A DNA stretch of 64,000 bases from Thainema sp. (GCA_052168235.1 JBQLZK010000021.1:31620-95619), one strand, 5' to 3'; shown: positions 2 to 18,539, numbered from the stretch's first letter. The notes: generated by a model from the sequence alone, not told the origin. A program made the numbers and translations.

Positions 2-1366
2 TCTTCCCCCATTAACCCCAGTGGCGTAACGTCTTTAACGACCAATACGCGTGGCTTTCAACCTGCAGGTGACATCTATATTACAGGTGAGCGCTTGCTG
101 GTTTCAGGGGGTGGGGCTTTGTCCTCGATCACATTTGGTGCAGGGGCTGGTGGGCAGGTCACCATTCGCAATCGTGAAACGACTGTAGTAGGAGATAACT
201 TTGGTGGTCTTTACAGCAATATCAGCGGTATCACATTTGGTACTGGCGATGCGGGAAGAGTCGCGTTAGAGACTCAACGATTGCGCATACTCGACGGTGG
301 TGCGATCGCAACTACATCTTGGCTTGTGGGACAGGGAGGCGATCTAGATATCAATGCCACAGAGTCCGTTCTGATCAGTGGGCAGGGCCAAAGTAATAAC
401 AGCAGCATCAATTCAGCCGTCATTCGGCCAGATCGGCTAATTCAGTTGCTCTTTGGCCTGCCTGATGTTCTAACCGCTGATGCTGGCAGCATCAATGTAA
501 CAACGCCAAGCTTATTGATAACGGACGGTGGAACAATCAGCGTTACTAATCGGGGTAGCGGTGATGGAGGGATGCTTGCGATCGCAACTGATCTCCTTTA
601 CCTCGATCGCCAGAGCAGCATTCAAGCTCAGACCACTTCAGGAGAAGGTGGAAACATCAACCTCCAAGCACAAAATGGGCTAATTATACGGAATGGGAGT
701 TTGATTAACGCCACTGCAGGCGGCGCAGGTAATGGCGGCAATATCACTATTGATGCGCCAGTAATTGTAGGACTAGAAAATAGTGACATTATTGCCAATG
801 CTGTTGAAGGTAACGGCGGGAACATCGATATCACAACTCAAGGCATCTTTGGTTTAGAGTTTCGCGACCAACTGACCCCTGAAAATGACATCACGGCTAG
901 CTCTCAGTTTGGGATAAGCGGCACGGTTCAAATCAGCTCCATCGATACTGATCCGAGTTCTGGTGTGATTGAACTGCCTGCCAACGTGGTAGACCCATCA
1001 CAGCAAATCGCCACAGGCTGTGCAGAGACTCAAGGCAGTCAGTTTGTCGCCACTGGACGCGGAGGTGTGCCGCAGAATCCGACCCAGCAGATAAACCGCG
1101 ATCGCACTTGGGAAGATGTCCGCGATCTTTCTGCTTATCGGCAATTAGAGAACGCTGAGCCTCCAGTTTTAACGACTACACCTAATCTCGTTGAAACCAC
1201 AAGCTGGCGTCGGAACGCTAATGGTCAGATTGAGTTGATTGCTGAGCAATCGGCTGTACCGCAATCGGCTTTTGCTACCTGTAGCGGTTCAGAGGTAAGC
1301 GGTTATTCCCCTAGCCACCGCGTAGCAACAGGGACAGCCACCATGACGAGCCAAGCCAGTTGGTGA
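2..1366 (+). CDS. Filamentous haemagglutinin family (TpsA-like) exoprotein, 5'-truncated by the window edge (copy 1)
   Basis: Frame is open from position 2. G/N/T-rich beta-helix repeats (GGNITI-type). C-terminal NSDIIANA..GGNI.ITTQGIFG and C..SQF.ATGRGG.P.NP motifs are shared with copies 2-4. Confidence 0.85.
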   Translation, partial: SSPINPSGVTSLTTNTRGFQPAGDIYITGERLLVSGGGALSSITFGAGAGGQVTIRNRETTVVGDNFGGLYSNISGITFGTGDAGRVALETQRLRILDGGAIATTSWLVGQGGDLDINATESVLISGQGQSNNSSINSAVIRPDRLIQLLFGLPDVLTADAGSINVTTPSLLITDGGTISVTNRGSGDGGMLAIATDLLYLDRQSSIQAQTTSGEGGNINLQAQNGLIIRNGSLINATAGGAGNGGNITIDAPVIVGLENSDIIANAVEGNGGNIDITTQGIFGLEFRDQLTPENDITASSQFGISGTVQISSIDTDPSSGVIELPANVVDPSQQIATGCAETQGSQFVATGRGGVPQNPTQQINRDRTWEDVRDLSAYRQLENAEPPVLTTTPNLVETTSWRRNANGQIELIAEQSAVPQSAFATCSGSEVSGYSPSHRVATGTATMTSQASW

Positions 1367-1530
1367 TTGGGAAGAATAAATCTGATTTTTTATCTAATTC
1401 TCAATGTTTATCACCGTAACTAGCAATTATTCGCCATCCAAGGGAAATATAAATTAAAGTTGCGCCTTACCAGGGTTAGGTTGATGAAAAGATGGATGAG
1501 TTGTTTCGAAAAGATACATATTGAAACGGT
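1367..1530 (+). repeat. Conserved intergenic/leader block repeated between FHA genes (also ~4042-4205 and ~6899-7062)
   Basis: Near-identical sequence TTGGGAAGAATAAATCTGATTTTT..CAAGGGAAATATAAA..GGGTTAGGTTGATGAAAAGATGGATGAGTTGTTTCG at three junctions. Confidence 0.9.
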
Positions 1531-4054
1531 TGCTGGTTTACTAATACCTATTGGATTGGGTTTGGTTTTTGGAACCCCCGCAAACGCTCAAGTAACACCT
1601 GACGGCACTCTATCCACTACCGTTTCTCGCACAGGCAGCAACTTTACCATCAACAACGGCAACCAAGTCGGCAATAATTTATTCCACAGCTTCAGCCAAT
1701 TTTCTGTGCCAACCAATGGAGCAGCTATCTTCAATAATGCTGCCGATGTGCAAACTATTTTTAGTCGAGTAACCGGGGGCAGTGTTTCCAATATTGATGG
1801 CCTCATTCAAACCAATGGCAATGCAAATTTGTTTCTGCTCAATTCAGCCGGAATTCTCTTTGGCCCCAATGCCAGTTTGAATGTCGGGGGCTCTTTCATT
1901 GCCAGCACCGCTGATAGTGTTGTGTTTGAGGATGGAGCACAGTTCAGTACCACAGACGTTGCTGCTGCGCCCTTGCTGACTGTAAATGTGCCAGTAGGGT
2001 TGCAGATGGGAAGCGATCCTGGCTCAATAATCGTGCAGGGCCCGGGCAATCAATTGCTCGATTTAACTGGTTTCGGTACGCCCAGTACTCTCAATACTCC
2101 TGCCGGTCTGCAAGTTGAAGCTAATCGGACACTCGCATTGATTGGTGGTGCCGTAAACTTCTCTGGCGGTGTTATTTCCACCAATGGTGGTGGGCATCTA
2201 GAAATAGGCAGTGTCAGCAATGGATCAGTTCGACTGACAGCTACACCTACGGGATGGGTGGGGGATTACTCTGCAGTGTCGCAGTTTAGCGATGTTCATC
2301 TGGCGCAAGACTCAATACTGAATACTAGCGGCAGTAATAGCTCCATCCAAATCCAAGGGCAAAACGTCAGTTTGACCGAAGGGTCTACTGCTTTGATCCA
2401 AAACTTTGGGCCTCAGTCTACCGGGGGAATTACAGTCAATGCTAGAGGCTCCCTTGACTTGGCGGGGAACACAACCAACGGTCAATTGGGAAGTTTGATC
2501 CAAATTAATAATTTCGGTACAGGCCAGACCGAAGATATTACTATTTCTGCGGCTCAGCTATCTCTCCGAGATGGGGCAAGAGTGCGAACGAACAGTGTTC
2601 AGAGTGCGGGCGGCAACATTACAGCAAATGTAACCGGTACAACCGAGATTAGCGGAATCAACCGCAACAACCCTGCCATTTATACTGCACTCGTAACATT
2701 TTCGCTTGGCAGTGGCAATGCAGGGGACATCAACGTGTCTACGGGTAATCTCAATCTTTTAGATTCTGGACAAATTACTTCTGTCGCTCTTAGTTCTGGA
2801 AACAGTGGCACCATCCAAGTCAATGCAACAGAGCAAATTGACATTGCAGGGTATAACCCTTTGGCATTTTATGAAAGTTCAGTGAGTACCTTTACTCAGG
2901 GGTCTGGTAATGCAAATAATGCAATCATCAACACCTCTAGATTAGTAATTCAGGATGGAGGCTCTCTAGGATCTTCTACCGTAGCCAGTGGTTCAGCCGG
3001 TAGCGTAGAAATTAACGCTTCAGAGTTTATCCACATCCAGGGGCGTGCGACTCAGGGTAATGGTGCCGGAACAATCTCTCGTATTTTTTCAAACGCTGAA
3101 CTTCTTAGCCCAGCCGCTCAAGCTGCTTTTGGGCTACCAGCTATTCCTGCCGGCAATGCAGGGTTCATTACCATCAATACCCCATCGCTACGCATTGCCG
3201 ATGGGGGTGCAGTAAGTGTCAAAAATGATGGTCCAGGGCTTGCAGGGAATGTACAGATTAATGCTGAATCTATGTTTCTGGAGCGTCAAAGCAGCATTAC
3301 TGCAGTAGCTCAGTCAGGAGAAGGGGGAAATCTTGTCTTTGACTTATCTGAGATACTATACCTAACCGATTTAAGCCAACTGAATGCTGAAGCTGGCGGG
3401 ACTGGCAATGGGGGCAATATTACTATTAACGTGCCGTTTATCGTCGGCTTGAACAACAGCGATATCATCGCTAATGCTGTTGAAGGAAATGGTGGCAAAA
3501 TTGACATCACGGCTCAAGGCATCTTTGGCCTAGAGTTTCGGGATGAACTAACGCCTGAAAGTGATATTACGGCTAGTTCTGAGTTCGGTGTCAGCGGTAC
3601 GGTTCAGATTAACTCTATCGATACTGATCCGAGTTCTGGTGTGATTGAACTGCCCGAGAATGTCGCAGACCCATCACAGCAAATTGCAACGGGCTGTGAA
3701 GAAACGCAAGGTAGTCAGTTCATTGCCACTGGACGCGGTGGTGTGCCCCAGAATCCCGCTCAGCAGGTAAACCGCGATCGCACTTGGGAAGATGTCCGCG
3801 ATCTCTCTGCTTACCGACAGTCTAGCAGCCCTGAACCGCCAGCCCCGGCGACCGTATCTAATTTGATTGAAACCACAAGCTGGCGTCGCAATGCTAATGG
3901 TCAGGTTGAACTGGTTGCTGAGCAATCAGCGATGCCGCAATCGGCTTTTGCCACCTGTAGCGGTTCAACGATGAACGGTCGTTTCCCTAGCCACAGCACA
4001 GTAACGGAGACAGCCACAATGACTAGCCAATCAGTTAGTAATTGGGAAGAATAA
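1484..4054 (+). CDS. Filamentous haemagglutinin N-terminal (TPS) domain exoprotein (copy 2)
   Basis: Signal peptide ending ANA-Q; TPS domain (NLFHSFSQF, SRVTGG, LFLLNSAGILFG); beta-helix repeats. ATG at 1484 preferred over TTG at 1460. Confidence 0.88.
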   Translation: MKRWMSCFEKIHIETVAGLLIPIGLGLVFGTPANAQVTPDGTLSTTVSRTGSNFTINNGNQVGNNLFHSFSQFSVPTNGAAIFNNAADVQTIFSRVTGGSVSNIDGLIQTNGNANLFLLNSAGILFGPNASLNVGGSFIASTADSVVFEDGAQFSTTDVAAAPLLTVNVPVGLQMGSDPGSIIVQGPGNQLLDLTGFGTPSTLNTPAGLQVEANRTLALIGGAVNFSGGVISTNGGGHLEIGSVSNGSVRLTATPTGWVGDYSAVSQFSDVHLAQDSILNTSGSNSSIQIQGQNVSLTEGSTALIQNFGPQSTGGITVNARGSLDLAGNTTNGQLGSLIQINNFGTGQTEDITISAAQLSLRDGARVRTNSVQSAGGNITANVTGTTEISGINRNNPAIYTALVTFSLGSGNAGDINVSTGNLNLLDSGQITSVALSSGNSGTIQVNATEQIDIAGYNPLAFYESSVSTFTQGSGNANNAIINTSRLVIQDGGSLGSSTVASGSAGSVEINASEFIHIQGRATQGNGAGTISRIFSNAELLSPAAQAAFGLPAIPAGNAGFITINTPSLRIADGGAVSVKNDGPGLAGNVQINAESMFLERQSSITAVAQSGEGGNLVFDLSEILYLTDLSQLNAEAGGTGNGGNITINVPFIVGLNNSDIIANAVEGNGGKIDITAQGIFGLEFRDELTPESDITASSEFGVSGTVQINSIDTDPSSGVIELPENVADPSQQIATGCEETQGSQFIATGRGGVPQNPAQQVNRDRTWEDVRDLSAYRQSSSPEPPAPATVSNLIETTSWRRNANGQVELVAEQSAMPQSAFATCSGSTMNGRFPSHSTVTETATMTSQSVSNWEE

Positions 4055-4157
4055 ATCTGATTTTTATCTAATTCTCAATGTTTATCACCGTAATTAGCAA
4101 TTATCCGTCATTCAAGGGAAATATAAAACACAGTTGTGTCTCACTAGGGTTAGGTTG

Positions 4158-6911
4158 ATGAAAAGATGGATGAGTTGTTTCGGCAAGACACATGTTGGGA
4201 CAGTTGCGGGGTTATTGATACCTGTTGGACTGAATTTAATTTGGGGAGTTTCTGCAAACGCTCAAGTAACCTCTGATGGCACTTTATCCACAACCGTTTC
4301 TCGCACAGGCAGCAACTTTACCATCAACAACGGCAGTCGAGTCGGCAATAATTTATTCCACAGCTTCAGCCAATTTTCTGTGCCCACCAATGGAGCAGCT
4401 ATCTTCAATAATGCTGCCGATGTACAAACCATTTTCAGCCGAGTAACCGGGGGCAGTGCTTCAAATATTGATGGCCTCATTCAAACCAATGGCAGTGCAA
4501 ATTTATTTCTGCTCAATTCAGCGGGCATTCTCTTTGGTCCCAATGCCCGTTTAGATATTAGCGGTTCGTTTGTTGCTAGTACCGCAAGTAGTGTCTTATT
4601 TGGCGATGGTGTTCAGTGGAGCACGACCAATACAGCCACGCCTCCATTGTTAACCGTTAGTGTTCCGGTAGGATTACAACTGGGGCCGAATGCAGGATCA
4701 ATTCAAGTCGAAGGGCCACCAGTACTAAATTCGTTTATTCCTCGTCCTCCAACTCTGACTGTCCCATCAGGAGAAACCTTGGCCTTAGTTACTGGACAAA
4801 TCGATATTGATAACGCAACCCTAACGGCTCCAGATGGGCAAATCGAACTGTGGGCTGTACAAGATGCTGAGGTGACGTTTAACAGTAGTCTCCGTAATTG
4901 GCGCTTGGTGAGTGAGATGGATCTAGCGAACTGGGGTACAGTTTCGCTACGACAAGCTTCGTTGGTGAATGCAAGTGGAACCGATGGTGGGGCCATCAAC
5001 ATCCGGGGATTAGGACTGACTGTGCAAGATGGATCAAACATTAGTTCGAATACCTTAGCGGGTCAAGGGAGAGGTATTACCGTTCAAACGACAGACTTTG
5101 TTGACCTGCTAGGAGCGTCACAGCCAAATCAGTTTTTCCCTGGTATTGGAACGTCTGTTGGAAGCATATTTGAGCCTCTAGCCATCGGGCGTGCAGGCAA
5201 CGTAACCGTCGAGACCGAGAACTTGCGATTGCGTAATGGAGCAGGACTTTTTTCCTCTTCGTCTGGTAACAATTCTCGAACAGGGGATATTGTTGTTCGA
5301 GCTTCAAACATTGAGGTTATCGGCTTCCAGCCCTTTTTATTGCAACCAACCTCCATTACTACTACGCTCTTTAGCGGTACCAACAATGAAAGTGGCAATA
5401 TTACTATTGAGTCTGATCGCATCCGTGTGCAAGATGGAGGACTGATCAGTACGTCTTTGCTGGCTTTTAGCCCTCTATTTCCTACGGTTGGAAGATCGGG
5501 TGATATTTCGATCCGAGCAACCGAAAGCTTCGAAATTGCGGGTTCGACACCTTTCAATGTGCTATCTGGGGTATCTACAGGCATTCAACCCTTTGCAGAA
5601 GGGCAGGCTGGAAACATCACAATTAATGCTGGACGGCTACAAATCTCTGATGGCGGATCTATTCGGAGTAGCTTAGCAGGAACAGGGCAAGCCGGAAGCA
5701 TTTCTATTCGAGCAACGGAGATAGCCGTTAGTGAACCGAAACTTGATGGCACCAGCAATTTACCCGGTGGCATTACCGTTGCTGTAGGAAGTAATGCAGT
5801 CGGCCCAGGTGGCAGTATCAATCTAACGGCTGATCGGCTATATGTCTTTGATGGTGGCCAGATTACATCTTCCAGCTTAGGACAAGGAACCGCCGGAAGC
5901 GTCAGCCTCCGGGTCAGAGATATTGATGTGCGAGGCATTTCCCCGTCTCAAATAAATGGCCAGTTCCTACCCAGTGAAATCACAGCCTCTTCGACAGGTG
6001 CCTTTGAGGCAGGCTCAGTCAATATCAGAGCCGATCGCTTACAGGTGCGTGACGGTGCTAAAGTAACCGTGAGCAATTTGGGGACTGGTGATGCCGGGAA
6101 CCTCAACGTTTGGGCTCGCAACGTCTTCTTGGATAACGGTGGCAGTCTACAAGCTGAAGTTAACGGCGGTGGGCAAGGAAATATTCGACTTCACATTGAT
6201 GACTTACTCGTGCTGCGAAACGGCAGCAACATCACCACCAATGCTCAAGGTGCGTCCACCGGAGGCAACATCTCTATCGATGCTGGATTTGTAATAGCGG
6301 TAGCCGATGAAAACAGTGACATCATCGCCAATGCTATTGAAGGCAATGGCGGTAACATCGACATCACCACTCAAGGTATCTTTGGCCTAGAGTTTCGGGA
6401 TGAACTAACGCCTGAAAGTGATATTACGGCTAGTTCCCAGTTCGGCGTCAGCGGCACGGTTCAGATCACCACCATCAACACCGACCCTAGTTCTGGCGTG
6501 ATTGAACTACCTGCTAACGTGACAGACCCGTCACAGCAAATTGCTACAGGCTGTGCAGAAACGCAAGGCAGTCAGTTCATTGCCACTGGACGCGGCGGCG
6601 TACCCCAGAATCCTACCCAGCAGGTCAACCGCGATCGCACTTGGGAGGATGTGCGTGACTTATCAGCATATCGACAGTCAGAGAACGCTGAGTCTCCAGC
6701 CCTGACGACCACATCTAATTTGGTTGAAACCACAAGTTGGCGTCGCAATGCTAATGGTCAGGTTGAGCTGATTGCTGAGCAATCGGCTATGCCGCAGTCG
6801 GCTTTTGCCACCTGTAGCGGTTCGGCAATGAACAGTCGTTCTCCCAACCACAGCACAGTGATTGAGGCAGCAGCCATAACGAGCCAAGCCGTTGGTGATT
6901 GGGAAGAATAA
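4158..6911 (+). CDS. Filamentous haemagglutinin N-terminal (TPS) domain exoprotein (copy 3)
   Basis: Same architecture as copy 2. ATG at 4158 (alternative TTG at 4134). Confidence 0.88.
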   Translation: MKRWMSCFGKTHVGTVAGLLIPVGLNLIWGVSANAQVTSDGTLSTTVSRTGSNFTINNGSRVGNNLFHSFSQFSVPTNGAAIFNNAADVQTIFSRVTGGSASNIDGLIQTNGSANLFLLNSAGILFGPNARLDISGSFVASTASSVLFGDGVQWSTTNTATPPLLTVSVPVGLQLGPNAGSIQVEGPPVLNSFIPRPPTLTVPSGETLALVTGQIDIDNATLTAPDGQIELWAVQDAEVTFNSSLRNWRLVSEMDLANWGTVSLRQASLVNASGTDGGAINIRGLGLTVQDGSNISSNTLAGQGRGITVQTTDFVDLLGASQPNQFFPGIGTSVGSIFEPLAIGRAGNVTVETENLRLRNGAGLFSSSSGNNSRTGDIVVRASNIEVIGFQPFLLQPTSITTTLFSGTNNESGNITIESDRIRVQDGGLISTSLLAFSPLFPTVGRSGDISIRATESFEIAGSTPFNVLSGVSTGIQPFAEGQAGNITINAGRLQISDGGSIRSSLAGTGQAGSISIRATEIAVSEPKLDGTSNLPGGITVAVGSNAVGPGGSINLTADRLYVFDGGQITSSSLGQGTAGSVSLRVRDIDVRGISPSQINGQFLPSEITASSTGAFEAGSVNIRADRLQVRDGAKVTVSNLGTGDAGNLNVWARNVFLDNGGSLQAEVNGGGQGNIRLHIDDLLVLRNGSNITTNAQGASTGGNISIDAGFVIAVADENSDIIANAIEGNGGNIDITTQGIFGLEFRDELTPESDITASSQFGVSGTVQITTINTDPSSGVIELPANVTDPSQQIATGCAETQGSQFIATGRGGVPQNPTQQVNRDRTWEDVRDLSAYRQSENAESPALTTTSNLVETTSWRRNANGQVELIAEQSAMPQSAFATCSGSAMNSRSPNHSTVIEAAAITSQAVGDWEE

Positions 6912-7015
6912 ATCCGATTTTTATCTAATTTTCAATGTTTTGTCACCGCAATTAGCAATTATTCGCTATTCAAGGGAAATATAAAACACAGTTGTGTCTC
7001 ACCAGGGTTAGATTG

Positions 7016-9814
7016 ATGAACAGATGGATGAGTTGTTTCGAGAAGATACATATCGAAACGATTGCGGGATTATTAGTACCTATTGGACTGAGTTTGGTTT
7101 GGGGAGTTTCTGTAAGTGCTCAAGTAACGCCTGACGGCACGCTGTCCACCACCGTTTCTCGTACAGGCAGCAGCTTTACCATCAACAACGGCAGTCGAGT
7201 TGGCAATAATTTATTCCACAGCTTTAGTCAATTTTCTGTGCCAACCAATGGAGCCGCTATCTTTAATAATGCTGCCAATGTGCAAACTATTTTCAGTCGA
7301 GTAACTGGGGGCAGCGCTTCCAATATTGATGGTTTGATTCAGACTAAAGGCAATGCTGACTTGTTTCTGCTCAATCCGTCTGGCATCCTCTTTGGCCCCA
7401 ATGCCAGCTTGAATATTGGAGGCTCCTTTGTTGCGAGTACAGCAGACAGCATTCTGTTTGACGATGGGACTCAGTTTAGTGCAACTAACACGACAGCTTC
7501 GCCATTGCTGACGGTGAGTGTTCCAGTGGGATTGCAACTGGGAGCTAATGCAGAGCCAATTCGCGTTGAAGGTATGCCCGCCAACAATTTCTTCTTTCGG
7601 ACGCCGACTTTGTCAATGCCATCAAATCAGATGTTGGCACTAATTGGGGGAACAGTCGATATCGACAGTGCCAACATTATTGTCCCGGATGGGCATGTGG
7701 AGCTGTGGGCACTGCAAAATGGCACGGTGGATATCCCAACCACAGGGAACTGGCAGTTATCAAGTTTGTCACCATCGCCCACATGGGGCGACGTTACGTT
7801 ACGACAATCCTCCTATATCAACGCCAGTGGGACAATGGGAGGCGCAATTAATATTCGAGGTCGTAGTTTAACCTTGCAAAATGGTTCGCATATAGAATCA
7901 TCTACATATGGCGTAAATAATCAAGGCCAGGGCATTAACGTTCAGACAACAGAATTTGTGGATGTGCTGGGTGCCTCTCATCCCGACAATTATCTCCTCG
8001 CAGGTCTCGCGACAAATGTGTCTGGTAGCGGAGCCACTGGCGGGAATATTCAGATTGATACTCAGCGGTTGCGCGTGAACACGGGGGCATGGATCTCTTC
8101 TATAACCTCCGGTACGAACCTATTCACCAGTCTTCCTGTTACGGACGCCAACACAGGCCAAATTATTATCCATGCTACTGATGTAGAGGTACAGGGGTAT
8201 AATCCAACGCCTAATGCCTTTGGCTATTCCGTCAGTGCGATCGCAACCATGATAACTGGGGGAGAACGGAATAACGGTGGTGCAATGATCATTGATGCTG
8301 ACAGGGTAAGGGTGCTAGACGGAGCACGTCTCACCACCGATGTCATTGGTCCGCTGATTGGTCCTCCTACACCGACCATTGGCAATGCTGGCAGCGTTGT
8401 TGTGACTGCAAGAGAAAGTTTAGAGATTCGTGGGACAAACCCCGCACAGTTTCACAGTGGGATCGCTAGCTCAATTCAACTCTTAGGGGTTGGAGAGGCG
8501 GGGGATATTGAGATCACTGCCGGACAACTTTCCCTGTCTAACGGTGGAACCATTACCAGTGGGGTTGCTGGTAATTCCATCGCTGCCAACGCAGGTCAAG
8601 GTGCGGCAGGTAATATTACCATTCGAGCCAATGATGTGCAGGTTAGCGATCCTATATTTGATCCCTTTTCTAGTTCTATCAGCGGTATCACCGTGTCATT
8701 AGGTCAGAACTCTACTGCTCAGGGAGGGAATATCAACCTAACTGCGAATCGTTTGCGAGTCTTTAACGGGGGGCAAATCACCTCGTCAAGCGAAGGCGAC
8801 GGGCCAGCCGGCAGCGTCAACCTCCGCGTCAGAGATATTGATGTGAAAGGGATTTCCTCATCTCAAGTGAATGGTCAGTTTCTCCCCAGTACCATCACCG
8901 CAGCCGCCAACTCTAGCTTTAATGCAGGCTCGGTCAATATCAGAGCTGATCGATTACAGGTGCGCGACGGGGCCGAAGTGACCGTTAGCAATTCCGGCAC
9001 AGGTGATGCGGGCAACCTCAATGTTTGGGCCCGCAATATCTTTTTGGATAACGGCGGCAGCCTGCAAGCTGAAGTCAACGGTGGTGGGCAAGGTAATATT
9101 CGACTCTACGTTGATGACTTACTCGTGCTGCGACACGGCAGTAGTATCACGACCAATGCTCAAGGGGCTTCCACCGGAGGCAACATCAGCATTGATGCTG
9201 GATTTGTAGTAGCAGTCGCTGATGAAAACAGCGATATCATCGCCAATGCGATTGAAGGCAACGGAGGGAACATTGACATCAACACTCAGGGCATCTTTGG
9301 TCTAGAGTTTCGCGACCAACTGACGCTTGAAAGTGATATCACAGCTAGTTCTCAGTTCGGTGTCAGCGGCACGGTTCAAATTAACACCATTAACACCGAT
9401 CCTAGTTCTGGCGTGATTGAGCTGCCCGAAGATGTAGCAGACCCATCGCAGCAAATTGCCACAGGCTGTACAGAAACGCAAGGCAGTCAGTTTATCGCCA
9501 CTGGACGCGGTGGTGTGCCGCAGAATCCGACTCAGCAGGTAAACCGCGATCGCACTTGGGAGGATGTCCGCGATCTCTCTGCTTATCGACAGTCGGAGAA
9601 CGCTGAGTCTCCAGCCCCGACGACTGTATCTAATCTGATTGAAACCACAAGCTGGCGTCGCAACGCCAACGGTCAGGTTGAACTGATTGCTGAGCAATCA
9701 GCTATCCAGCAATCAACTTTTGCCACCTGTAGCAGTCCAGCCATTAGGAGTGGCACATCCCAATCACAGCATAGTTATAGTGCAGCGACTGAAACAGCCA
9801 CAATAACTCGCTAA
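7016..9814 (+). CDS. Filamentous haemagglutinin N-terminal (TPS) domain exoprotein (copy 4)
   Basis: Same architecture, with the canonical NPSGI motif. ATG at 7016 (alternative TTG at 6992). Confidence 0.88.
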   Translation: MNRWMSCFEKIHIETIAGLLVPIGLSLVWGVSVSAQVTPDGTLSTTVSRTGSSFTINNGSRVGNNLFHSFSQFSVPTNGAAIFNNAANVQTIFSRVTGGSASNIDGLIQTKGNADLFLLNPSGILFGPNASLNIGGSFVASTADSILFDDGTQFSATNTTASPLLTVSVPVGLQLGANAEPIRVEGMPANNFFFRTPTLSMPSNQMLALIGGTVDIDSANIIVPDGHVELWALQNGTVDIPTTGNWQLSSLSPSPTWGDVTLRQSSYINASGTMGGAINIRGRSLTLQNGSHIESSTYGVNNQGQGINVQTTEFVDVLGASHPDNYLLAGLATNVSGSGATGGNIQIDTQRLRVNTGAWISSITSGTNLFTSLPVTDANTGQIIIHATDVEVQGYNPTPNAFGYSVSAIATMITGGERNNGGAMIIDADRVRVLDGARLTTDVIGPLIGPPTPTIGNAGSVVVTARESLEIRGTNPAQFHSGIASSIQLLGVGEAGDIEITAGQLSLSNGGTITSGVAGNSIAANAGQGAAGNITIRANDVQVSDPIFDPFSSSISGITVSLGQNSTAQGGNINLTANRLRVFNGGQITSSSEGDGPAGSVNLRVRDIDVKGISSSQVNGQFLPSTITAAANSSFNAGSVNIRADRLQVRDGAEVTVSNSGTGDAGNLNVWARNIFLDNGGSLQAEVNGGGQGNIRLYVDDLLVLRHGSSITTNAQGASTGGNISIDAGFVVAVADENSDIIANAIEGNGGNIDINTQGIFGLEFRDQLTLESDITASSQFGVSGTVQINTINTDPSSGVIELPEDVADPSQQIATGCTETQGSQFIATGRGGVPQNPTQQVNRDRTWEDVRDLSAYRQSENAESPAPTTVSNLIETTSWRRNANGQVELIAEQSAIQQSTFATCSSPAIRSGTSQSQHSYSAATETATITR

Positions 9815-10080: not shown

Positions 10081-12663
10081 ATGATTTTGCGTTTTAAGCG
10101 ATCGCCGCTCTTTTATCTAATCCTTAGTATTTTAAGCCTGAGTCTGTCCCTTGCTCTGCCAACAGCGCGAGTACTCTCGGCAACACCCACGACTGCATCA
10201 TTTAGTATTTCAGCGGTTAGCAATTTATCTGCCAACTCATCCCAATCTTTACTAGAACAAGGCCGTAGCCTTTATCGAGCCGGGCAATTTGGAGACGCAA
10301 TTACTATCTGGCAGCAGGCCATTCAGCAGTATCAGAGTCAAGGCGATTCACTCAATCAGGCACTCGGCCTCAGCTATCTCTCGCTAGCTTATCAGGAGCT
10401 TTATCAGTGGGATGCAGCTCAACAGTCAATTGAGCAAAGCTTGGATCTGTTGCAAGCGGCTCAATCAACAGCAGATGCCATTTTGTGGGCACAGGCACTC
10501 AATACCCAAGCGAGCCTGCAGCTCAACACCGGCCAAGCCGAATTGGCGTTGGAAACCTGGCAGCAAGCGCAAACCTATTACGAACAAGCAGGGGATACCA
10601 GCGGTAGCTTAGGTAGCCAAATCAACCAGGCACAGGCATTACAGAGCTTGGGCTTCTATCGCCGCTCAAAACAGCAACTCGAATCGCTGGCTCAGCAACT
10701 AGAGGCAATGCCTGATGCAGATATGAAAGTTAGCGGATTGCGATCGCTAGGTTTATCTCTACAAATGATTGGCGATACAGTCGGCAGTCAGCAGGCATTG
10801 GAACAGAGTTTAGCGATCGCACAAGACATTGGTGCAACGGCGCAACTGAGCTCCATCTGGTTGAATTTGGGCAAAACGTCTGCTGACTTAGGCGATCCCG
10901 ACAGCGCGCTGTATTGCTTTGATCAGGCCGAGCAGGTCGCCGTGAATCCAGGAGAACAGTTACAGGCTCGATTGGATCGATTCAAGCTGTTTCTGGACTA
11001 TGACCTGCTGGATTTAGCGACACCGGAGGCCGCCACGATCCTTCAGCAGCTTCAGGCACTGCCACCGAATCATCTATCGCTCTATGCGGCGATCAACTTT
11101 ACCGCTGCGATTAACCAGATCGAAAATCCGGCTCAAGTTCTGCCGCTGAGCAATTTGTCGCAGTTGATGGCTACGACTATTCAATCGGCCCAGCAGAGCC
11201 AGGATGCTCAAGCAGAAGCCTATGCGCTGTACCAGTTAGGCCAACTTTATAAGCGGACTGAGCAGTGGGCAGACGCAAGACAGGTGACGCAGAAATCTCT
11301 CGATGTGGCTCGTCAGCTTCGAGCAGACCACATTATTTCTCAGTCAGCTTGGAGCTTGGGCCAAGTGTATCGCCAAGAAGGAAAGCGGACGGAAGCTATT
11401 AGCGCTTATACAGAAGCCGTCAATGCTTTAAAGGCTTTACGAACTGATTTAGCGTCCATTAATTCCGACGTTCAGTTTTCATTTCAGGAAAGTGTCGAGC
11501 CAGTCTATCGAGAACTAGTTGATTTGCTGCTTGATGGTCAGCCCAGTCAAACAGCTTTGTTAGAAGCCCGTGAATTGATTGAATCGCTTCAGGTGGCAGA
11601 ACTAGATGATTTCTTCCACGAAGCCTGTTTAGATGAAACCGAGCGGGTTGAGATTGACCAAGTTGATCCGGCAGCAACCGTCATTTATCCGATTATTCTG
11701 CCAGATCGCTTAGCCGTCATCCTTTCTGCGGCTGGAAAACCGCTGCACTACTATGAAACACCTGTGTCACAGGTAGAAATTGAGCAAACGTTAGACACGT
11801 TGCTAATTGGCCTCAATCCAGTTTCAGATGCCAAAGAACGCGATCGCGCTTCTCAGCAAGTATACAACTGGTTAATTCAACCGGCGGAAGCAGAGCAAAT
11901 TTTGACCGATACAAAAACATTGGTGTTTGTGTTAGATGGCCGCCTGCGTAATATTCCAATGGCGGCTCTATATGATGGCCAGAACTATTTGATTGAAAAA
12001 TATGCTGTTGCCCTTTCGCCAGGTTTACAGCTAATGGCTGCTCAGTCCCTCCAACCGAATCAAATTGACGCGATTGTGGGTGGTATTAGTCAATCCCATG
12101 AAGGCTTTAGTGCCTTACCTGCTGTTGAATCCGAAGTGCAAGAAATTTCAGAGATGGTGCCAGCTTCAGTTTTAATGAATCACGAATTTACTAGCGCTGC
12201 TCTGGCGAATCGCTTTAGAAATACAAATGCTAATGTGATTCACTTAGCGACTCATGGACAGTTTAGTTCTCGGCAAGAAGAAACCTTTCTCTTAACTTGG
12301 GATGGTCGAGTCAGCATTAAAGAACTATCGGAACTTCTAGAGAATCGCGGTAGTAAAGCCTCACAGCCGATTGAATTATTGGTTCTTAGTGCCTGTGATA
12401 CTGCTACTGGCGATGATCGGGCCGTACTTGGCTTAGCTGGCTTAGCGGTCAAATCAGGCGCTCGCTCAACGGTGGCTGCGCTTTGGCCTGTAAAGGATCG
12501 AGCTGCTGCTCAACTGATGACTCGTTTTTATGATCAGCTGCAACAGCAAGGTATGACGAAAGCTGAAGCACTACGTCAAGCTCAAATGTATCTCATTCAG
12601 CAAACTGACTTTAAAGATCCTTTCTTTTGGTCTGCCTTTGTTTTAGTGGGTAACTGGTTATAG
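10081..12663 (+). CDS. TPR-repeat CHAT domain protein (caspase/HetF-like clan CD protease) with N-terminal signal peptide
   Basis: Hydrophobic N-terminus and TPR-like helices. CHAT motifs VIHLATHGQF and LVLSACDTATGD give an intact His/Cys dyad. Ends PFFWSAFVLVGNWL. Confidence 0.92.
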   Translation: MILRFKRSPLFYLILSILSLSLSLALPTARVLSATPTTASFSISAVSNLSANSSQSLLEQGRSLYRAGQFGDAITIWQQAIQQYQSQGDSLNQALGLSYLSLAYQELYQWDAAQQSIEQSLDLLQAAQSTADAILWAQALNTQASLQLNTGQAELALETWQQAQTYYEQAGDTSGSLGSQINQAQALQSLGFYRRSKQQLESLAQQLEAMPDADMKVSGLRSLGLSLQMIGDTVGSQQALEQSLAIAQDIGATAQLSSIWLNLGKTSADLGDPDSALYCFDQAEQVAVNPGEQLQARLDRFKLFLDYDLLDLATPEAATILQQLQALPPNHLSLYAAINFTAAINQIENPAQVLPLSNLSQLMATTIQSAQQSQDAQAEAYALYQLGQLYKRTEQWADARQVTQKSLDVARQLRADHIISQSAWSLGQVYRQEGKRTEAISAYTEAVNALKALRTDLASINSDVQFSFQESVEPVYRELVDLLLDGQPSQTALLEARELIESLQVAELDDFFHEACLDETERVEIDQVDPAATVIYPIILPDRLAVILSAAGKPLHYYETPVSQVEIEQTLDTLLIGLNPVSDAKERDRASQQVYNWLIQPAEAEQILTDTKTLVFVLDGRLRNIPMAALYDGQNYLIEKYAVALSPGLQLMAAQSLQPNQIDAIVGGISQSHEGFSALPAVESEVQEISEMVPASVLMNHEFTSAALANRFRNTNANVIHLATHGQFSSRQEETFLLTWDGRVSIKELSELLENRGSKASQPIELLVLSACDTATGDDRAVLGLAGLAVKSGARSTVAALWPVKDRAAAQLMTRFYDQLQQQGMTKAEALRQAQMYLIQQTDFKDPFFWSAFVLVGNWL

Positions 12664-13118
12664 CATACAAAAGCCACAATGCAAGTTTAGATTCCTAATC
12701 AAATAGGAGCGATGAATCCGTGCTGAAATAGTTGCGATCGCAACAGGGACAAATTTGCCTAAACTCGATCAATAAATTTAGTTGATCAAGTTTAGATTGG
12801 ACAAATTCCTGTTTACTTAAAAAACATTGTTGTCGTTCGTTGATTTAGATCTCGTAAAAATACTCAGATTTGCGTAGTTTCTCTATGGTTCCGATGTGCG
12901 TAGTTGTCTATGTTACAAGTGTGTTCTCTGTTAATGATGTATCCGACAGCAAATCGTTGTTCTTAATCACTAATTTCAACCAATTTTGATTAGGAAATAA
13001 TGAGGAACTACCTGTTCGGAAAGGTTTTAGCGTGATGGATGTAGAGCCATTTTTATCATCTGCTCTATTTGTAATCGCTAGAGTTTTGTCCACATTAACC
13101 TTATCCAGGTATCACGTC

Positions 13119-14105
13119 ATGAAACGTCAACATCTGGCGAGTATGTTGAGCATTGTTGCTCTAATCGCGGGTGGTGTTTGTACCAGTGCTCAAGCTGTGA
13201 CATTTACACCCCCGACCACCAATCGGGCTCCAAGTCAAGCGACTGGCGGAGCATCGCGCGGGAGTTTCTTTATCCCTCCAGCTGACCAGGGTGCTCCGAA
13301 TCAAGCCACGGGTGGAGCCTCTCGTGGAGGCTTGTTTGTGCCTGCTGATGGTCAGCGGGCTCCTCGACAGGCAATGGGCGGAGCGTCACGCGGTGGTCTA
13401 TTTACACCTGCCGATGGCCAACGGGCTCCCCAGCATGCGGCTGGTGGAGCATCGCGCGGCGATCTGTTCACGCCTGCTGATAGTCAGCGGGCTCCCCAAC
13501 AGGCTGCTGGTGGGGCATCGCGTGTCGGCACCTACTATTTGAATCCATCAATGGTAGGGGCAGACGGCCCAGCCGCGATGATTGCGCTGACGCCTCAAAG
13601 CTACTACGGCACGACGGTGTCTGAGCGTCCCATGTTTCTGGTGTATCTGCCTGCATCCAATGCGGCGGAAGCCGTTTTTAGTCTGAAGGACGCAGCGGGC
13701 AATCTGCAATACCAGATGACGGTTCCGGTTGCCGGAGCTGTTGGTGTTGTGCCAATTCAATTGCCAGAAGATGCACCTGCCCTAGAAATTGGGGAAGACT
13801 ATCAGTGGTTAGTTGCACTCAAGGTCGATGGGCAGTTGGGGCCAAGCACGCCCTATGTCGATGGCTGGATTCAGCGGATTCAACCAAATGACGAGCTGGC
13901 AACGGCTCTGCAAGAGGGAGATGCCCTAGAACAGGCAACGGCTCTGGGTCAAGACGGTGTGTGGTATGACTGCGTGGCAATTCTTGCTTCGCTTTATGCC
14001 ACAGAGGCAGCGGATACGACCTTAACCCATCAGTGGGCAGAACTACTGTCCTCAGTTGGATTAGAAGCAATTGAAACAGCTCCCGTTTTAGCTTCTGTTC
14101 AATAG
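13119..14105 (+). CDS. DUF928 domain protein with signal peptide and five N-terminal GGASRG repeats
   Basis: GGASRG motifs, GTTVSERP.F.VY.P, Y.W..A, GWIQR and G.WYD motifs typical of DUF928. ATG at 13119 gives a good signal peptide (AQA-V). Confidence 0.85.
   Translation: MKRQHLASMLSIVALIAGGVCTSAQAVTFTPPTTNRAPSQATGGASRGSFFIPPADQGAPNQATGGASRGGLFVPADGQRAPRQAMGGASRGGLFTPADGQRAPQHAAGGASRGDLFTPADSQRAPQQAAGGASRVGTYYLNPSMVGADGPAAMIALTPQSYYGTTVSERPMFLVYLPASNAAEAVFSLKDAAGNLQYQMTVPVAGAVGVVPIQLPEDAPALEIGEDYQWLVALKVDGQLGPSTPYVDGWIQRIQPNDELATALQEGDALEQATALGQDGVWYDCVAILASLYATEAADTTLTHQWAELLSSVGLEAIETAPVLASVQ
13203..13523 (+). repeat. Five tandem ~66-bp (22-aa) coding repeats F.P.....AP.QA.GGASRG
   Basis: Read directly from the translation and the DNA. 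Confidence 0.92.
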
Positions 14106-14116
14106 ATTGGCTTACT

Positions 14117-14213
14117 CACATCTTGCACCTTGCATTTTAAGAAACCGAACAGGTTATTTTGCCGTCGCATCACGGCGGCAAAATAACCCTTCTGGGTTCT
14201 GGTGCAAGATGTG
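14117..14213. repeat. Nested inverted-repeat element (MITE-like or terminator)
   Basis: Outer IR CACATCTTGCACC (14117-14129) / GGTGCAAGATGTG (14201-14213); inner stem at 14152-14188. Confidence 0.7.
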
Positions 14214-14322
14214 CGCTCAGTAATGTCTAACGTCCAGTAGAAGTTGGTGAGTTATCCTTGCCAACTTCTTGGCCTAGCCCAACCCATATTCAATCAGCTC
14301 GCGATCGCTGTCTAGCAAAATT

Positions 14323-17148
14323 ATGTGGCGCAAGTTTCAGACTCTTCTTCAACGAACTCGTAGCGTACTGGTGATTACGCCCAGTGTGGCTTTGACTGTC
14401 ATTGTGGGTCAGTCATTTGGGTTGTTTAACCTACCGGAATGGAAGATCCGCGACGAGTGGGTGCGGTTGCGATCGCAAAATGTCGTAGCCGACGAGATTG
14501 TCATTGTCACAATTGATGAGCAGGATATTCAATCGGTCGGTAACTGGCCGGTTCCAGACTGGGCACTGGCGCAGCTACTGGAACAGATTCGGGCGCAAGA
14601 ACCGCGCAGCATCGGCCTGGATCTGTATCGCGATTTGCCGGAGGGCAGTGGCCACGAGCAGTTAGTTGAGATCTTTCAAACAACGCCTAATTTAATTGGA
14701 GTTGAGAAAATTACCGGGGAACGAGTTCCAGCGCCGCCCGCACTAAAAGAGCTCGACCAAGTGGGACTGGCAGATTTGGTGCTAGACAGCGATCGCAACG
14801 TGCGCCGCGCCCTGCTCACGGCTGGCGATGAGCAAGAGGACAACATCATCAAAGCTGGATTGGCTACCCGCGTTGCTCTCCAGTACCTGGAAGCCGAAAG
14901 TATCAGTTTAGAAAGCATTGATCCAGAGCAGCAGAAGTTTCAGTTGGGTCAACAAACTTATGTACCACTCAGCCGACAGGAAGCGGGCTACTCGAATGGG
15001 GATTTGGGCGGCTATCAGATTTTGCTGAACTGGCATGGCTCAGAAACTGCTTTCCAAACGGTTACCATGCGCGATGTGCTAGCAGGCAACGTGCCGTCGG
15101 ATTTAATGCGCGATCGCATGGTTTTTATTGGCTCGACCGCTTCGAGTACAAACGACTTTTTTGGCACTCCCTTTAGTTCCTCTTGGCTATTTGCCCAACG
15201 TCCAACACCTGGTGTCGTTGTTCATGCCAATATTGCCTACCAGCTCGTTCGCGGCGCACAGACGGGAACAGCGAATCTACGCGGCTTTTCCCGTGTCCCC
15301 TTTGCTGGCTGGATTTTACTCTGGTCTACTGTGGGGTCAGTTGGTAGCTGGTGGCTCTCAAGCGTGCAAGCGGGTAAATGGATTCCGGGCGGCAAAATCT
15401 TCTGGGCCAGCGTGGGCATTAATGGAGCACTACTGGTGGGCGGTTACGCCGGATTCTTGGGCGGTATTTTGATTCCCGTTAGTCCTGCATTGGTCGCATT
15501 GACTAGCAGCGTGATTGCCACGACAAACGCTCGCAAACAGCAAAAGCTAGAAGAAACCAACCAACAGCTCGAAATTGCTAACGCTCAGCTTCTGGACTAT
15601 TCCAAAACGCTGGAAGCCAAAGTAGAAGAGCGCACACACGAGCTAGTTCAAGCCAAACAAGCCGCTGATGCCGCCAACCAAGCCAAGAGCGAGTTCCTGG
15701 CCAATATGAGTCATGAGCTGCGCACGCCGCTCAACGGCATTTTGGGCTACGCCCAAATTCTAGAGCGCTCGCCAGCGCTCCGTCAGCAAGATCAAAAAGG
15801 GGTAGGCATTATCTATCAATGCGGCACCCACCTCCTGACGCTGATTAATGACATTCTGGATTTGTCAAAAATCGAAGCTCGCAAACTGGATTTATCACCC
15901 ACAAAGATTCATTTGCTGACGTTTTTGCATGGAGTGGCTGAAATCTGTCGCATTCGGGCCGAGCAAAAAGGTGTGTTCTTCAATATGGCCATGAACGATC
16001 GCCTACCGATGACGATTCAGGCCGATGAAAAGCGGCTGCGACAGGTTTTGATTAATCTGCTGGGAAACGCTATCAAGTTTACGGACAACGGCAAAGTCAC
16101 ATTCAAAATTGATGTCCTGCCCCAGGCTGCTCCGCCGCAAGACGAAGATGAACAGCAGGCCAATCAGCTTACCATCACGCTGCGCTTTCAAGTTGAAGAC
16201 ACTGGCATTGGCATGTCTGCCGATCAGATCGAAAAAATCTTTTTACCGTTTGAGCAGGTTGGTGAAGCTAGTCATCGCCCCGACGGTACTGGCTTGGGGC
16301 TAGCGATTAGCCAAAAAATCATCGCGCTGATGAGTAGTCAAATTCAGGTACAGAGCCGCTTAGGAGAAGGCAGCGTCTTCTGGTTTGACCTCAGTGTTCC
16401 AGTGTCCCGTGACTGGCAGGCCACAGAGCAGAACCCGACCCAACCCGTAATTGTAGGAATTCAAGGTCAATCCCCCAAAATCCTAATTATTGATGACGAT
16501 GCCAATCATCGTTCAATTTTGACGAAGCTGCTGCAGGACATCGGTTGTCAAACCCTTGCCGCCACAGACGGTGGTGAAGGATTAGCACAAGCTATGCAAC
16601 ATCAGCCCGATCTGATTGTGCTGGATTTGGCCATGCCTAATATGGATGGATTTGAGCTGATGATGAAGTTGCAGGCTAATTCAGACACTCAAGCCATTCC
16701 AATTATCGTGTCTAGTGCCAGCGTGTTTGAAGCAGACCGCGATCGCAGTTTGCAAGCTGGGGCACATACATTTCTGCCCAAACCGTTTCAAACCGATGAA
16801 CTACTCAATGCCATCAGCTCACTGCTGAATGTGGACTGGATCTATGCCGAAGTAATGCCACTGTCAACCTCTTTAATTCCTGATCCGCTGCCAGTACAGT
16901 CGTCTGCTCATCAACATAATCATCAACAGGATGAATGGGTCTTGCCTTCAGATGACGTTCTACAGCAGCTCTACCACCTGGCCATGATGGGCGACATTCC
17001 AGCGATTGAGCAGATTTTAGTGGACTTAACTCAACATTCACAGTTCGCTCCCTTTGTCGCTGAGTTACACAAGCTGGCCACTAACTTTCAAACTAAAAAA
17101 ATTCGCCAATTCCTCAAAGCTTTTGTCAAAACGGAGTCGCATCAGTAA
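14323..17148 (+). CDS. CHASE2-domain hybrid sensor histidine kinase (CHASE2-TM-HisKA-HATPase-REC)
   Basis: [24 protein letters not shown] and PGV.VHA (CHASE2); TM helices; [39 protein letters not shown] with DLAMP. Confidence 0.93.
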
Positions 17149-18539
17149 TGATTTCACATTCTTTCTCCCAGTCAACTTCCACGCTGAGTCAGGCTGCTCA
17201 ATGTGATGGATCACCGAATAGCTTAGTCACTGATGCCATACCGACTTCTGTGCATATTCTGCTGGTTGATGATAATCCAACCAATCTGAAAGTGCTGTCG
17301 GAAGCCATTCAAGGCTATGGTTGGAAAGCGTTAATGGCAACGGATGGTGAATCTGCGATTGAACAGGCTGAATATGCTAGTCCTGATTTGATTTTGCTGG
17401 ATGTGATGATGCCTGGTTTGAACGGGTTCGAAACCTGCCGCAGGCTAAAAGATAATCCCCTGACTCAAAATATTCCGATCATTTTTATGACCGCTTTATC
17501 GGATGCAAGAGATAAAGTGAAAGGGTTAGAAATGGGCGCGGTCGATTATGTAACTAAGCCATTTCAACAAGAAGAAGTCGTTGCTCGGTTGAAGCTGCAT
17601 CTGAAGCTATCTCATTTAACCCGCACACTTGAGCAACAGGTGCAAGAGCGTACCGCCAAATTAGCCCAATCCTTACAGCAATTACAGCAGGCGCAACTAA
17701 AGCTGGTACAAAGCGAAAAAATGTCTGCTTTAGGTAATTTGGTTGCGGGTGTCGCCCATGAAATCAATAATCCCGTAGGCTTTTTATCGGGCAATTTACA
17801 GCCAGCACAGGATTATGTCAGCGACCTAATGCGGCTAATTGATCTATATCAGCAAACCTATCCTGAACCCACACCTGAAATTCAGGATGAGCTAGAGGAT
17901 GTGGATCTGGACTATTTACGGGATGATTTGCCTAAGCTTCTACAGTCGATGCGAGTGGGAATTGAGCGTATCCACGGCATCAGCAACAGCCTTCGGACGT
18001 TCTCCCGTGCAGATAAGGACTACAAAGTTCCGTTTGATGTTCATGAAGGATTAGATAGTACGCTGCTAATCCTGAAGCATCGCCTGAAAGCCAATGATAA
18101 TCGGCCCGATATTGAGGTGGTTAAACACTATGGTGACTTGCCTAAAATTGACTGCTTTCCTGGCCAATTAAATCAGGTCTTTATGAATATCCTGGCCAAT
18201 GCAATTGATGCACTAGAAGAATCTAATGCTGAACGCAGCTTTGCCGACATTAAAGCCAATCCTAATCAAATTACTATCAGTACCCAATTAACGGACGATC
18301 AGCAGGCCGTTGTCATTCAGCTTCAAGATAACGGCATTGGCATCAGTGAGGAGGTCAAGCAGAAAATTTTTGATCACCTGTTTACGACTAAAGATGTGGG
18401 GAAGGGAACTGGACTGGGTTTAGCCATCTCTCAACAAATCGTTGTTGAACAGCACAACGGTTCGCTAGACGTCAAAGCGTCCCCAAATCAAGGCTCTGAA
18501 TTCACGATCACCTTGCCTGTTAAGGCTCTCAACTCTTAG
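17148..18539 (+). CDS. Response regulator-histidine kinase hybrid (REC-HisKA-HATPase)
   Basis: ILLVDD..LLDVMMP..KPF; GVAHEINNP; QVFMNILANAIDA; GTGLGL. TAATG stop/start overlap with the upstream kinase. Confidence 0.92.
   Translation: MISHSFSQSTSTLSQAAQCDGSPNSLVTDAIPTSVHILLVDDNPTNLKVLSEAIQGYGWKALMATDGESAIEQAEYASPDLILLDVMMPGLNGFETCRRLKDNPLTQNIPIIFMTALSDARDKVKGLEMGAVDYVTKPFQQEEVVARLKLHLKLSHLTRTLEQQVQERTAKLAQSLQQLQQAQLKLVQSEKMSALGNLVAGVAHEINNPVGFLSGNLQPAQDYVSDLMRLIDLYQQTYPEPTPEIQDELEDVDLDYLRDDLPKLLQSMRVGIERIHGISNSLRTFSRADKDYKVPFDVHEGLDSTLLILKHRLKANDNRPDIEVVKHYGDLPKIDCFPGQLNQVFMNILANAIDALEESNAERSFADIKANPNQITISTQLTDDQQAVVIQLQDNGIGISEEVKQKIFDHLFTTKDVGKGTGLGLAISQQIVVEQHNGSLDVKASPNQGSEFTITLPVKALNS

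Follow-up and report, generated by a model that had tools for sequence, protein, structure and literature searches.

Tandem copies of a family-wide arm motif in a DUF928 protein encoded between CHAT protease and CHASE2 kinase genes in Thainema sp.

What is the role of five near-identical copies of a short peptide ending in Gly-Gly-Ala-Ser-Arg (GGASR), placed between the signal peptide and the folded domain of a bacterial protein? This question is raised by a DUF928 gene in a 64,000-nucleotide stretch of DNA from Thainema sp. (GCA_052168235.1, JBQLZK010000021.1:31620-95619), the whole of which was analyzed here and is referred to as the window. The gene lies in a co-directional block on the plus strand with genes for TpsA-like proteins, a TPR-CHAT caspase-like protease, a CHASE2 hybrid histidine kinase and a receiver-kinase. 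A prediction made from the sequence alone (hereafter the original prediction) regarded the peptides as Arg-specific cleavage sites for the adjacent CHAT protease, from which several products of ~22 residues would be released, or else as a multivalent bait or inhibitor region.

The five units were confirmed as real tandem repeats in a DUF928 protein of the exported type. The peptide strings given in the original prediction matched exactly, with lengths of 20, 22, 22, 22 and 22 amino acids (aa); its coordinates (13203..13523) were right at the start, whereas position 13523 only completes the codon of the fifth Arg, and the unit ends at 13526. The consensus of the unit is approximately G-x-L-F-T-P-x-x-G-x-x-A-P-x-Q-A-T-G-G-A-S-R. 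GGASR is invariant in all five units while its codons vary (GGC/GGT, GGA/GGG, GCA/GCC/GCG, TCG/TCT/TCA and CGC/CGT), and over the last 60 nt any two units differ at 12-24 nucleotides; the codon differences between them are synonymous in 4-10 cases and non-synonymous in 3-8. This synonymous divergence indicates that the copies are old and maintained by protein-level selection, as had been proposed for GGASR. At the DNA level, Tandem Repeats Finder detected only the three youngest units (period 66, 2.8 copies, score 212, 13340-13522) and missed the two older ones. When the sequence of the mature protein was shuffled 10,000 times, a 5-mer was present at least three times in just 9 of the products, compared with five occurrences observed, and the composition (A 19%, G 18%, P 11%) is typical of disordered segments. 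We favoured the ATG at 13119 as the start over the GTG at 13032 reported by the open reading frame (ORF) lister, because the alignment of 72 relatives begins at this Met (consensus MKxxYLxS...). With this start, the repeats begin two residues past the predicted signal-peptide cut, and the Pfam DUF928 profile (PF06051) matched along positions 2-184 of its 184 with 172.4 bits (cut-off 26), also in a search of the whole genome; the match covers residues 131-323 of 328 and so starts at the final GGASR. NCBIfam contained no model for this protein.

We then counted the units across homologues, as the original prediction had recommended, using the 120 near relatives listed among 638 hits. These come from filamentous cyanobacteria, mainly Nostoc, Calothrix, Tolypothrix and Aulosira and in a few cases Leptolyngbya, Pantanalinema and Desertifilum. 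All 120 contained between three and nine units (3 in 5 proteins, 4 in 40, 5 in 47, 6 in 22, 7 in 5 and 9 in 1), spaced mostly by 22 aa (19-23), and gaps of 44 aa corresponded to a degenerate unit. To avoid circularity on the Arg, the units were anchored on F-x-P alone. The Arg, whose conservation had been set beforehand as a point on which the cleavage-site idea could fail, was kept in 594 of the 596 anchored units (at +18 in 569, one residue off by an indel in 25) and replaced by Y in one and by P in another. The sequence logo showed conservation along the full unit (F, T, P, then G, A-P, Q-A-T and GGASR-G) with no variable spacer, and ~13 of the 22 positions were 75-100% conserved in these relatives from several cyanobacterial groups. 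Similarity between units was somewhat higher within a protein (78%) than from one protein to another (70%), and 33 of the 120 relatives contained two or more identical units, indicating that duplication is ongoing while the core is fixed.

The repeats did not arise as a new element in the window protein: they copy a motif that occurs across the family. The arm motif F-x-P-P...A-P...G-G-x-S/T-R-G occurs once in most DUF928 proteins and is usually followed by Cys. A whole-genome search identified eight DUF928 paralogues in Thainema, and six of the seven others carry one related motif straight after the signal peptide and then a Cys, as in LPGRREGGGTRGSC and FTPPQTGAPGGTSGGASRGDGVC. When run against all ORFs of this genome, a profile of the unit matched DUF928 paralogues only. 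A wider sample comprised 120 cyanobacterial loci from 38 other genomes and the Thainema genome (100 top-of-list places and 20 selected for long reading frames). In this sample, 117 of the 136 full-length DUF928 ORFs carried, immediately ahead of the body, the pattern [at least 3 of 4 small residues]-R-x(1-9)-C, with G following the R in 74 of the 117, and nine of the 19 ORFs that lacked the pattern were of the repeat type. Finally, a search of 1.84 billion sequences, as 50%-identity representatives, yielded 4016 relatives. Among the best 150 of these 4016, classified by a strict pattern, 79 were single-copy, 41 had two to eight copies and 30 had none, the last class including fragments and variant motifs; the strict regular expression and the unit profile both miss variants such as GGAKRG, GGTHRG and GGGRRG. 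These comparisons identify the units as tandem duplicates of the N-terminal arm motif, predicted to be exposed, that is typical of DUF928 proteins.

The amplification goes together with the loss of two cysteines. In its canonical form a DUF928 protein has one arm motif, a Cys within 1-9 residues of it and a Cys in the body, and the window protein has neither the arm Cys nor the body Cys, with K235 at the body position; by its sequence it is a distinct sub-form of the family. Among the representatives and the window protein, 66 of 79 single-copy proteins contain both the Cys after the motif and the body Cys, which presumably form a disulfide, whereas 37 of 42 multi-copy proteins contain neither. 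In the phylogenetic tree the multi-copy proteins formed two clades, each with 99% support in the Shimodaira-Hasegawa-like approximate likelihood ratio test: a GGASR type, which includes the window protein, and a GGGSR/GGGTR type. A single multi-copy clade was not rejected (approximately unbiased test, p 0.339; the groups were named after viewing the tree), and an independent-pairs test of Cys loss against the multi-copy state had no power (six pairs, median p 1). The sequences therefore leave room for the association to reflect only one or two events.

Other forms of the family were also encountered. Two proteins (loci L051 and L067) contain two diverged arm motifs (K-P-P-I-D...G-A-A-T-R) with the Cys kept after the second, and may be intermediate between the single-copy and repeat forms. 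In P0141 (543 aa) and P0144 (519 aa), two full DUF928 modules follow one another, each with arm motif, Cys and body. A search for longer, fused forms yielded one protein, the metagenomic P0391 (678 aa), which consists of a TPR region joined directly to a 9-unit DUF928 tail and body, without CHAT and without the DUF928 signal peptide; its TPR region resembles the N-terminal half of the TPR-CHAT protein, and P0391 is either a natural fusion or a deletion product.

To place the units with respect to the fold, we used an AlphaFold2 model built with 72 relatives. The predicted local distance difference test score (pLDDT) was 31-52 in the five units and 88 or more in the body (~aa 150-328), which was modelled as a seven-strand sandwich followed by four helices. 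In the model of a single-copy paralogue, GGASR (aa 60-64) overlaps the sole segment with a pLDDT below 50 (aa 61-64). Both models point to the arm motif, single or repeated, as an exposed flexible linear element outside the fold, although low pLDDT is no proof of disorder. For both, the best structural match was the C-terminal domain of MtxA from Magnetospirillum gryphiswaldense (MGR_0208, PDB 4Z29), which likewise has an Ig-like sandwich and a TPR-like helical bundle. Foldseek gave an E-value of 1.9e-6 and a template modelling (TM) score of 0.51 on the target; VIA gave Z 9.6 and a root-mean-square deviation of 4.3 Å for 148 of 169 residues aligned over both sub-domains. Sequence identity in the structural alignments was 13-15%, and plain FN3/Ig domains scored nearly as well (VIA Z up to 9.0), hence homology of the body to MtxA is likely but not proven. 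According to the report on MtxA (PMC4439547), mtxA encodes a periplasmic protein and is followed by a gene for a CHASE2 adenylate cyclase, its deletion gave no phenotype, and residues 25-110 are predicted to be mainly β-strand rather than a repeat tail. The likeness of the two proteins consists of a structural match by two aligners and an adjacent CHASE2 gene. Matches of residues 248-283 of the body to the designed β-propellers Bagel and Cake, obtained in the PDB sequence search, contained no significant stretch and were discarded as spurious. The same type of search returned no solved relative of the CHASE2 domain in the PDB.

The claim of an adjacent CHAT gene was borne out beyond the window: in seven of the eight multi-copy loci examined, the window included, the order is TPR-CHAT, DUF928, CHASE2, with the TPR-CHAT gene directly upstream of DUF928. 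The TPR-CHAT protein of the window starts with a signal-peptide-like N-terminus and retains the HLATHG and LSACDT motifs, which we take to contain the catalytic His and Cys. The features of the protein and of the gene block are listed in Table 1.

Table 1. Features of the DUF928 protein and of the surrounding gene block, in window coordinates
Feature	Position	Strand	Details
DUF928 gene	13119..14105	+	328 aa, stop included in coordinates; Pfam 1.1e-50
Predicted Sec signal peptide	13119..13196	+	aa 1-26, MKRQHLASMLSIVALIAGGVCTSAQA|VT, AQA|V cut; by eye, consensus of 72 relatives
Repeat unit 1	13203..13262	+	20 aa, FTPPTTNRAPSQATGGASRG, aa 29-48
Repeat unit 2	13263..13328	+	22 aa, aa 49-70
Repeat unit 3	13329..13394	+	22 aa, aa 71-92
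Repeat unit 4	13395..13460	+	22 aa, aa 93-114
Repeat unit 5	13461..13526	+	22 aa, aa 115-136; ends GGASR-V, then conserved VGTYYLNP
Linker and folded DUF928 body	13527..14102	+	β-sandwich then helical bundle, MtxA-C-terminal-like; pLDDT, structural match
TpsA-like gene, TPS secretion domain	2-1366	+	3' part only
TpsA-like gene, TPS secretion domain	1460-4054	+	
TpsA-like gene, TPS secretion domain	4134-6911	+	
TpsA-like gene, TPS secretion domain	6992-9814	+	
TPR-CHAT caspase-like protease gene	10081..12663	+	860 aa; CHAT 5.5e-64
CHASE2 hybrid histidine kinase gene	14323..17148	+	CHASE2-HisKA-HATPase-receiver; CHASE2 1.5e-60
Receiver-histidine kinase gene	17148..18539	+	start overlaps stop of CHASE2 kinase gene

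Based on the sequence of the units, the gene order and a precedent from another CHAT protease, we tentatively propose that each unit is a recognition site, that its Arg is cut by the putatively exported TPR-CHAT protein and that the CHASE2 kinase reads the result; we regard this as a serious candidate, somewhat short of probable. Removal of the signal peptide would leave the mature DUF928 protein in the periplasm, judging from signal peptides recognized by eye, as an Ig-like and helical body with a flexible tail in which a linear motif is repeated five times almost unchanged. The units would act as independent recognition sites, and the co-operonic TPR-CHAT protease would cut after the invariant Arg. 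The neighbouring CHASE2 hybrid kinase would then read the processing state of DUF928 (the trimmed body, the 21-22-aa peptides ending in GGASR, or both), and more copies would mean more sites or more product per molecule. The precedent is HetF of Anabaena PCC 7120, the founding cyanobacterial CHAT protease, which has TPRs like the window protein. In the study concerned (PMC9457339), HetF is described as cutting PatU3 between R117 and S118, the substitutions R117A, R117D and R117H abolish cleavage, and a preference for Arg is noted for related clan CD peptidases. HetF was assayed there as the CHAT domain alone, and its target is a single site in a cell-division and heterocyst regulator, with neither a repeat nor a CHASE2 partner (PMC9457339). 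In the window pair, the Arg of the units is near-invariant, and both proteins begin with a sequence that by eye resembles a signal peptide.

Several observations weigh against this proposal. The conservation of the whole unit exceeds what a caspase-type cut site (P4-P1) would need, and additional Arg or Lys residues within the units are not conserved. After the last Arg comes V or L in 89% of the relatives, whereas 95% of the inner units have G there, which indicates that the final site differs; a conserved G-T-Y-Y-L-N-P comes after this V or L. HetF, moreover, faces the cytoplasm and has another substrate. The gene neighbourhoods raise a further difficulty. We took a census around 142 DUF928 ORFs with home-made profiles and a radius of 9.5 kb, in which all counts are lower bounds, since the first 20 loci comprise mostly upstream sequence and some loci are truncated by the end of a contig. 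CHASE2 was found near 92 of the 142 ORFs and CHAT near 53; both lay near 41 ORFs and neither near 38, a further 51 had CHASE2 without CHAT, and 12 had CHAT without CHASE2. One locus with five units (L025) has CHASE2, with CHAT not found nearby. Adjacency also does not equal specificity, because genomes with DUF928 contain many CHAT genes (21 ORFs of the Thainema genome matched the CHAT-domain query). The interpretation in the original prediction is supported in part: selection, conservation of the Arg, the adjacent CHAT gene and the HetF precedent speak for it, whereas the conservation of the whole unit, the derivation of the units from a family-wide motif and CHASE2 as the steadier neighbour speak against it.

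The neighbour counts indicate that DUF928 is foremost a companion of CHASE2, to which the repeat sub-family adds a fixed TPR-CHAT. As the main rival reading, the units could be an uncut multivalent ligand, in which the arm motif would dock onto the periplasmic domain of CHASE2 or onto the TPRs of the CHAT protein, and five copies would raise avidity or bridge receptors with no release of peptides. On the sequence evidence this is possible, if on the whole unlikely. CHASE2 is the commonest neighbour of DUF928 and is present in all 12 loci with two or more units. In five small genomes (G023, G115, G117, G119 and G113), the numbers of DUF928 genes (1, 1, 1, 3 and 2) and CHASE2 genes (1, 1, 1, 3 and 3) are nearly equal, while those of CHAT genes differ (7, 4, 5, 7 and 3). 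Conservation of the full 22-aa unit without spacers is as expected for a binding epitope, the motif is predicted to be disordered, and in another phylum an MtxA-like protein is paired with a CHASE2 cyclase. However, an invariant Arg amid small residues, beside the gene of an Arg-type protease, looks like a cut site, and TPR-CHAT keeps its place directly upstream in seven of the eight multi-copy loci. As a phyletic test, the five small genomes gave no separation, because DUF928, CHAT and CHASE2 are present in all five; in the control genome of Synechococcus elongatus, CHASE2 was present and no match to DUF928 was found. A comparison of motif presence with CHAT or CHASE2 was moot, the motif being near-universal.

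A stronger form of the cleavage proposal, closer to the original prediction, is that DUF928 of this sub-family is a periplasmic multi-copy signal-peptide precursor, from which CHAT would free 3-9 near-identical peptides of 21-22 residues with GGASR ends as a CHASE2 ligand, amplifying into the phosphorelay. From the sequences we consider this quite unlikely. DUF928 nevertheless has the layout of a polyprotein precursor: behind an export signal, judged by eye and by the consensus of relatives, one conserved peptide is repeated in tandem. The precursor of yeast α-factor, which is cut by Kex2, combines a signal peptide, tandem conserved peptides, basic processing sites and a receptor in the same organism. 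Precursors of this type resemble the window protein in that the signal peptide is followed by tandem peptide copies bounded by a basic residue, but they use the eukaryotic secretory pathway and have spacers and dibasic sites, whereas the window protein has no spacers, a single Arg, a predicted periplasmic location and a caspase-like candidate protease.

It is very doubtful, as far as motif likeness can tell, that the repeats are a decoy or buffer that competes with the real CHAT substrates, perhaps the C-termini of the TpsA proteins, so that copy number would set a protease threshold. All five TpsA paralogues (four of them in the window) contain a near-identical D-P-S-Q-Q-I-A-T-G-C-x-E-T-Q-G-S-Q-F-I/V-A-T-G-R-G-G-V-P-Q-N-P ~100 aa before the stop, with the core C...F-x-A-T-G-R-G-G-V-P-x-N-P, and most of the TpsA-like ORFs in the sampled loci have a similar C...F-x-V-T-G-R-G-G-L-P-x-x-P. 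In these loci G-R/K-G-G was present in the second half of 52 of the 64 ORFs longer than 500 aa with a two-partner secretion (TPS) domain, and the DUF928 and TpsA motifs share the form small-small-R-G. This apparent likeness is, however, short, and some of the G-R-G-G matches fall in Gly-rich β-helix sequence. Two loci with five units have no TpsA within ~14.5 kb upstream, and TpsA number does not track unit number.

That the repeats are a passive spacer, a low-complexity linker grown by slippage that keeps the DUF928 body off the membrane or a partner, is highly improbable. The variable copy number, the signs of ongoing duplication and the predicted disorder would suit such a linker, but the conserved positions of the unit, the Arg in all but two of the anchored units, the synonymous differences piled up in the invariant core and the retention of the same motif family-wide as a single copy would not. 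Stacking of the units as a β-solenoid or a polyproline-like rod is barely conceivable, for the 22-aa spacing in most relatives and the short modelled strand at Q-A-T in each unit stand against the low pLDDT of all units despite an alignment of 72 sequences, the single motif of the paralogue as the least confident part of its model, and the A/G/P-rich composition.

Among known systems, the closest to the window protein is a paralogue from the same genome (G000:C18; L007:1468-2211, minus strand), which is also an export-type DUF928 protein with an arm motif, FTPPQTGAPGGTSGGASRG, and has the same neighbours, TpsA, TPR-CHAT, DUF928 and CHASE2; it differs in carrying one motif instead of five and in having the arm and body Cys that the window protein lacks. 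A comparable envelope module is the LapG-LapD control of LapA/CdrA in Pseudomonas, in which a periplasmic cysteine protease and a membrane receptor act with a large secreted adhesin or TPS protein. LapG, however, is transglutaminase-like and cuts a di-alanine motif, LapD senses cytoplasmic cyclic di-GMP, and the module has no DUF928-like partner or repeat tail.

The remaining features of the neighbourhood can be summarized as follows. A fifth tandem TpsA-like paralogue lies just upstream of the window (G000:C21:27516-30329). The number of units tracked neither the number of adjacent TpsA genes (loci with 5, 5, 5, 5 and 7 units had 0, 0, 3, 5 and five or more, and the window has five of each) nor the length of TPR-CHAT (851-865 aa for 5-7 units). 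Six single ORFs of 1338-1891 aa (G000:C25:50148-55820, G000:C12:52518-57668 and one each in loci L081, L086, L087 and L106) combine an N-terminal TPS secretion domain with a C-terminal CHAT, all without T-G-R-G-G; by this arrangement the CHAT protease would itself be a two-partner-secretion passenger. No peptide-modifying enzymes of the kind expected for a ribosomally synthesized and post-translationally modified peptide (RiPP) were found among the neighbours, which were only TPS-domain, TPR-CHAT and CHASE2/histidine-kinase proteins, and assignment of the TPR-CHAT protein to the RiPP TPR protein HaaT (NCBIfam) was rejected, the score of 45.5 bits against a cut-off of 1125 reflecting generic TPR similarity. 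The receiver-histidine kinase is a likely phosphorelay partner of the CHASE2 kinase.

The CHAT and DUF928 genes are separated by 455 bp, a gap that includes a 25-bp tandem repeat (2.1 copies, score 62) at 12871-12923, and the CHASE2 kinase gene begins 217 bp downstream of the DUF928 gene. In this second gap (14106-14322), chiefly at 14113-14213, metagenome contigs from three runs break, have loose ends or skip 49 bases, which suggests a short dispersed repeat or a variable element. A scan of 12500-14500 found no promoter-like sites and three terminator-like sites, not above shuffles. One metatranscriptome run contained two 151-nt contigs (12939-13089 and 13094-13243), although contigs from an RNA library do not prove transcription. 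Copy-number variants could not be read from the sequencing runs, as DNA contigs end inside the repeats. Among the best matches listed, the nearest named records were Leptolyngbya and Pantanalinema, with 70-77% identity.

In the open full-text literature, to which the search was confined (subscription journals and bioRxiv supplements lay outside it), we found no earlier account of DUF928, of its motif or of the repeats. We know of no established CHASE2 ligand, and literature searches on CHASE2, likewise outside subscription journals, turned up none. Defined by Zhulin et al. in 2003 (cited in PMC8195603), CHASE2 is an extracytoplasmic sensor domain of wide occurrence, and caspase-domain proteins fused to it are listed in a 2021 survey (PMC8195603). 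In the cyanobacteria sampled here, DUF928, a family without an assigned function, is the commonest neighbour associated with CHASE2. The repeat sub-family draws attention to a single short peptide, invariant and exposed, as the functional part of DUF928, and this arm motif is a testable candidate for what the CHAT protease cuts and the CHASE2 sensor reads; the natural series of three to nine copies turns a loose gene-neighbourhood link into a directly testable hypothesis. If the precursor interpretation were true, DUF928 would be the first peptide hormone precursor of the polyprotein type in bacteria and would supply the first ligand of a CHASE2 receptor. If our proposal of cleavage and sensing is correct, extracytoplasmic caspase-like proteolysis would be tied to two-component signalling in multicellular cyanobacteria.

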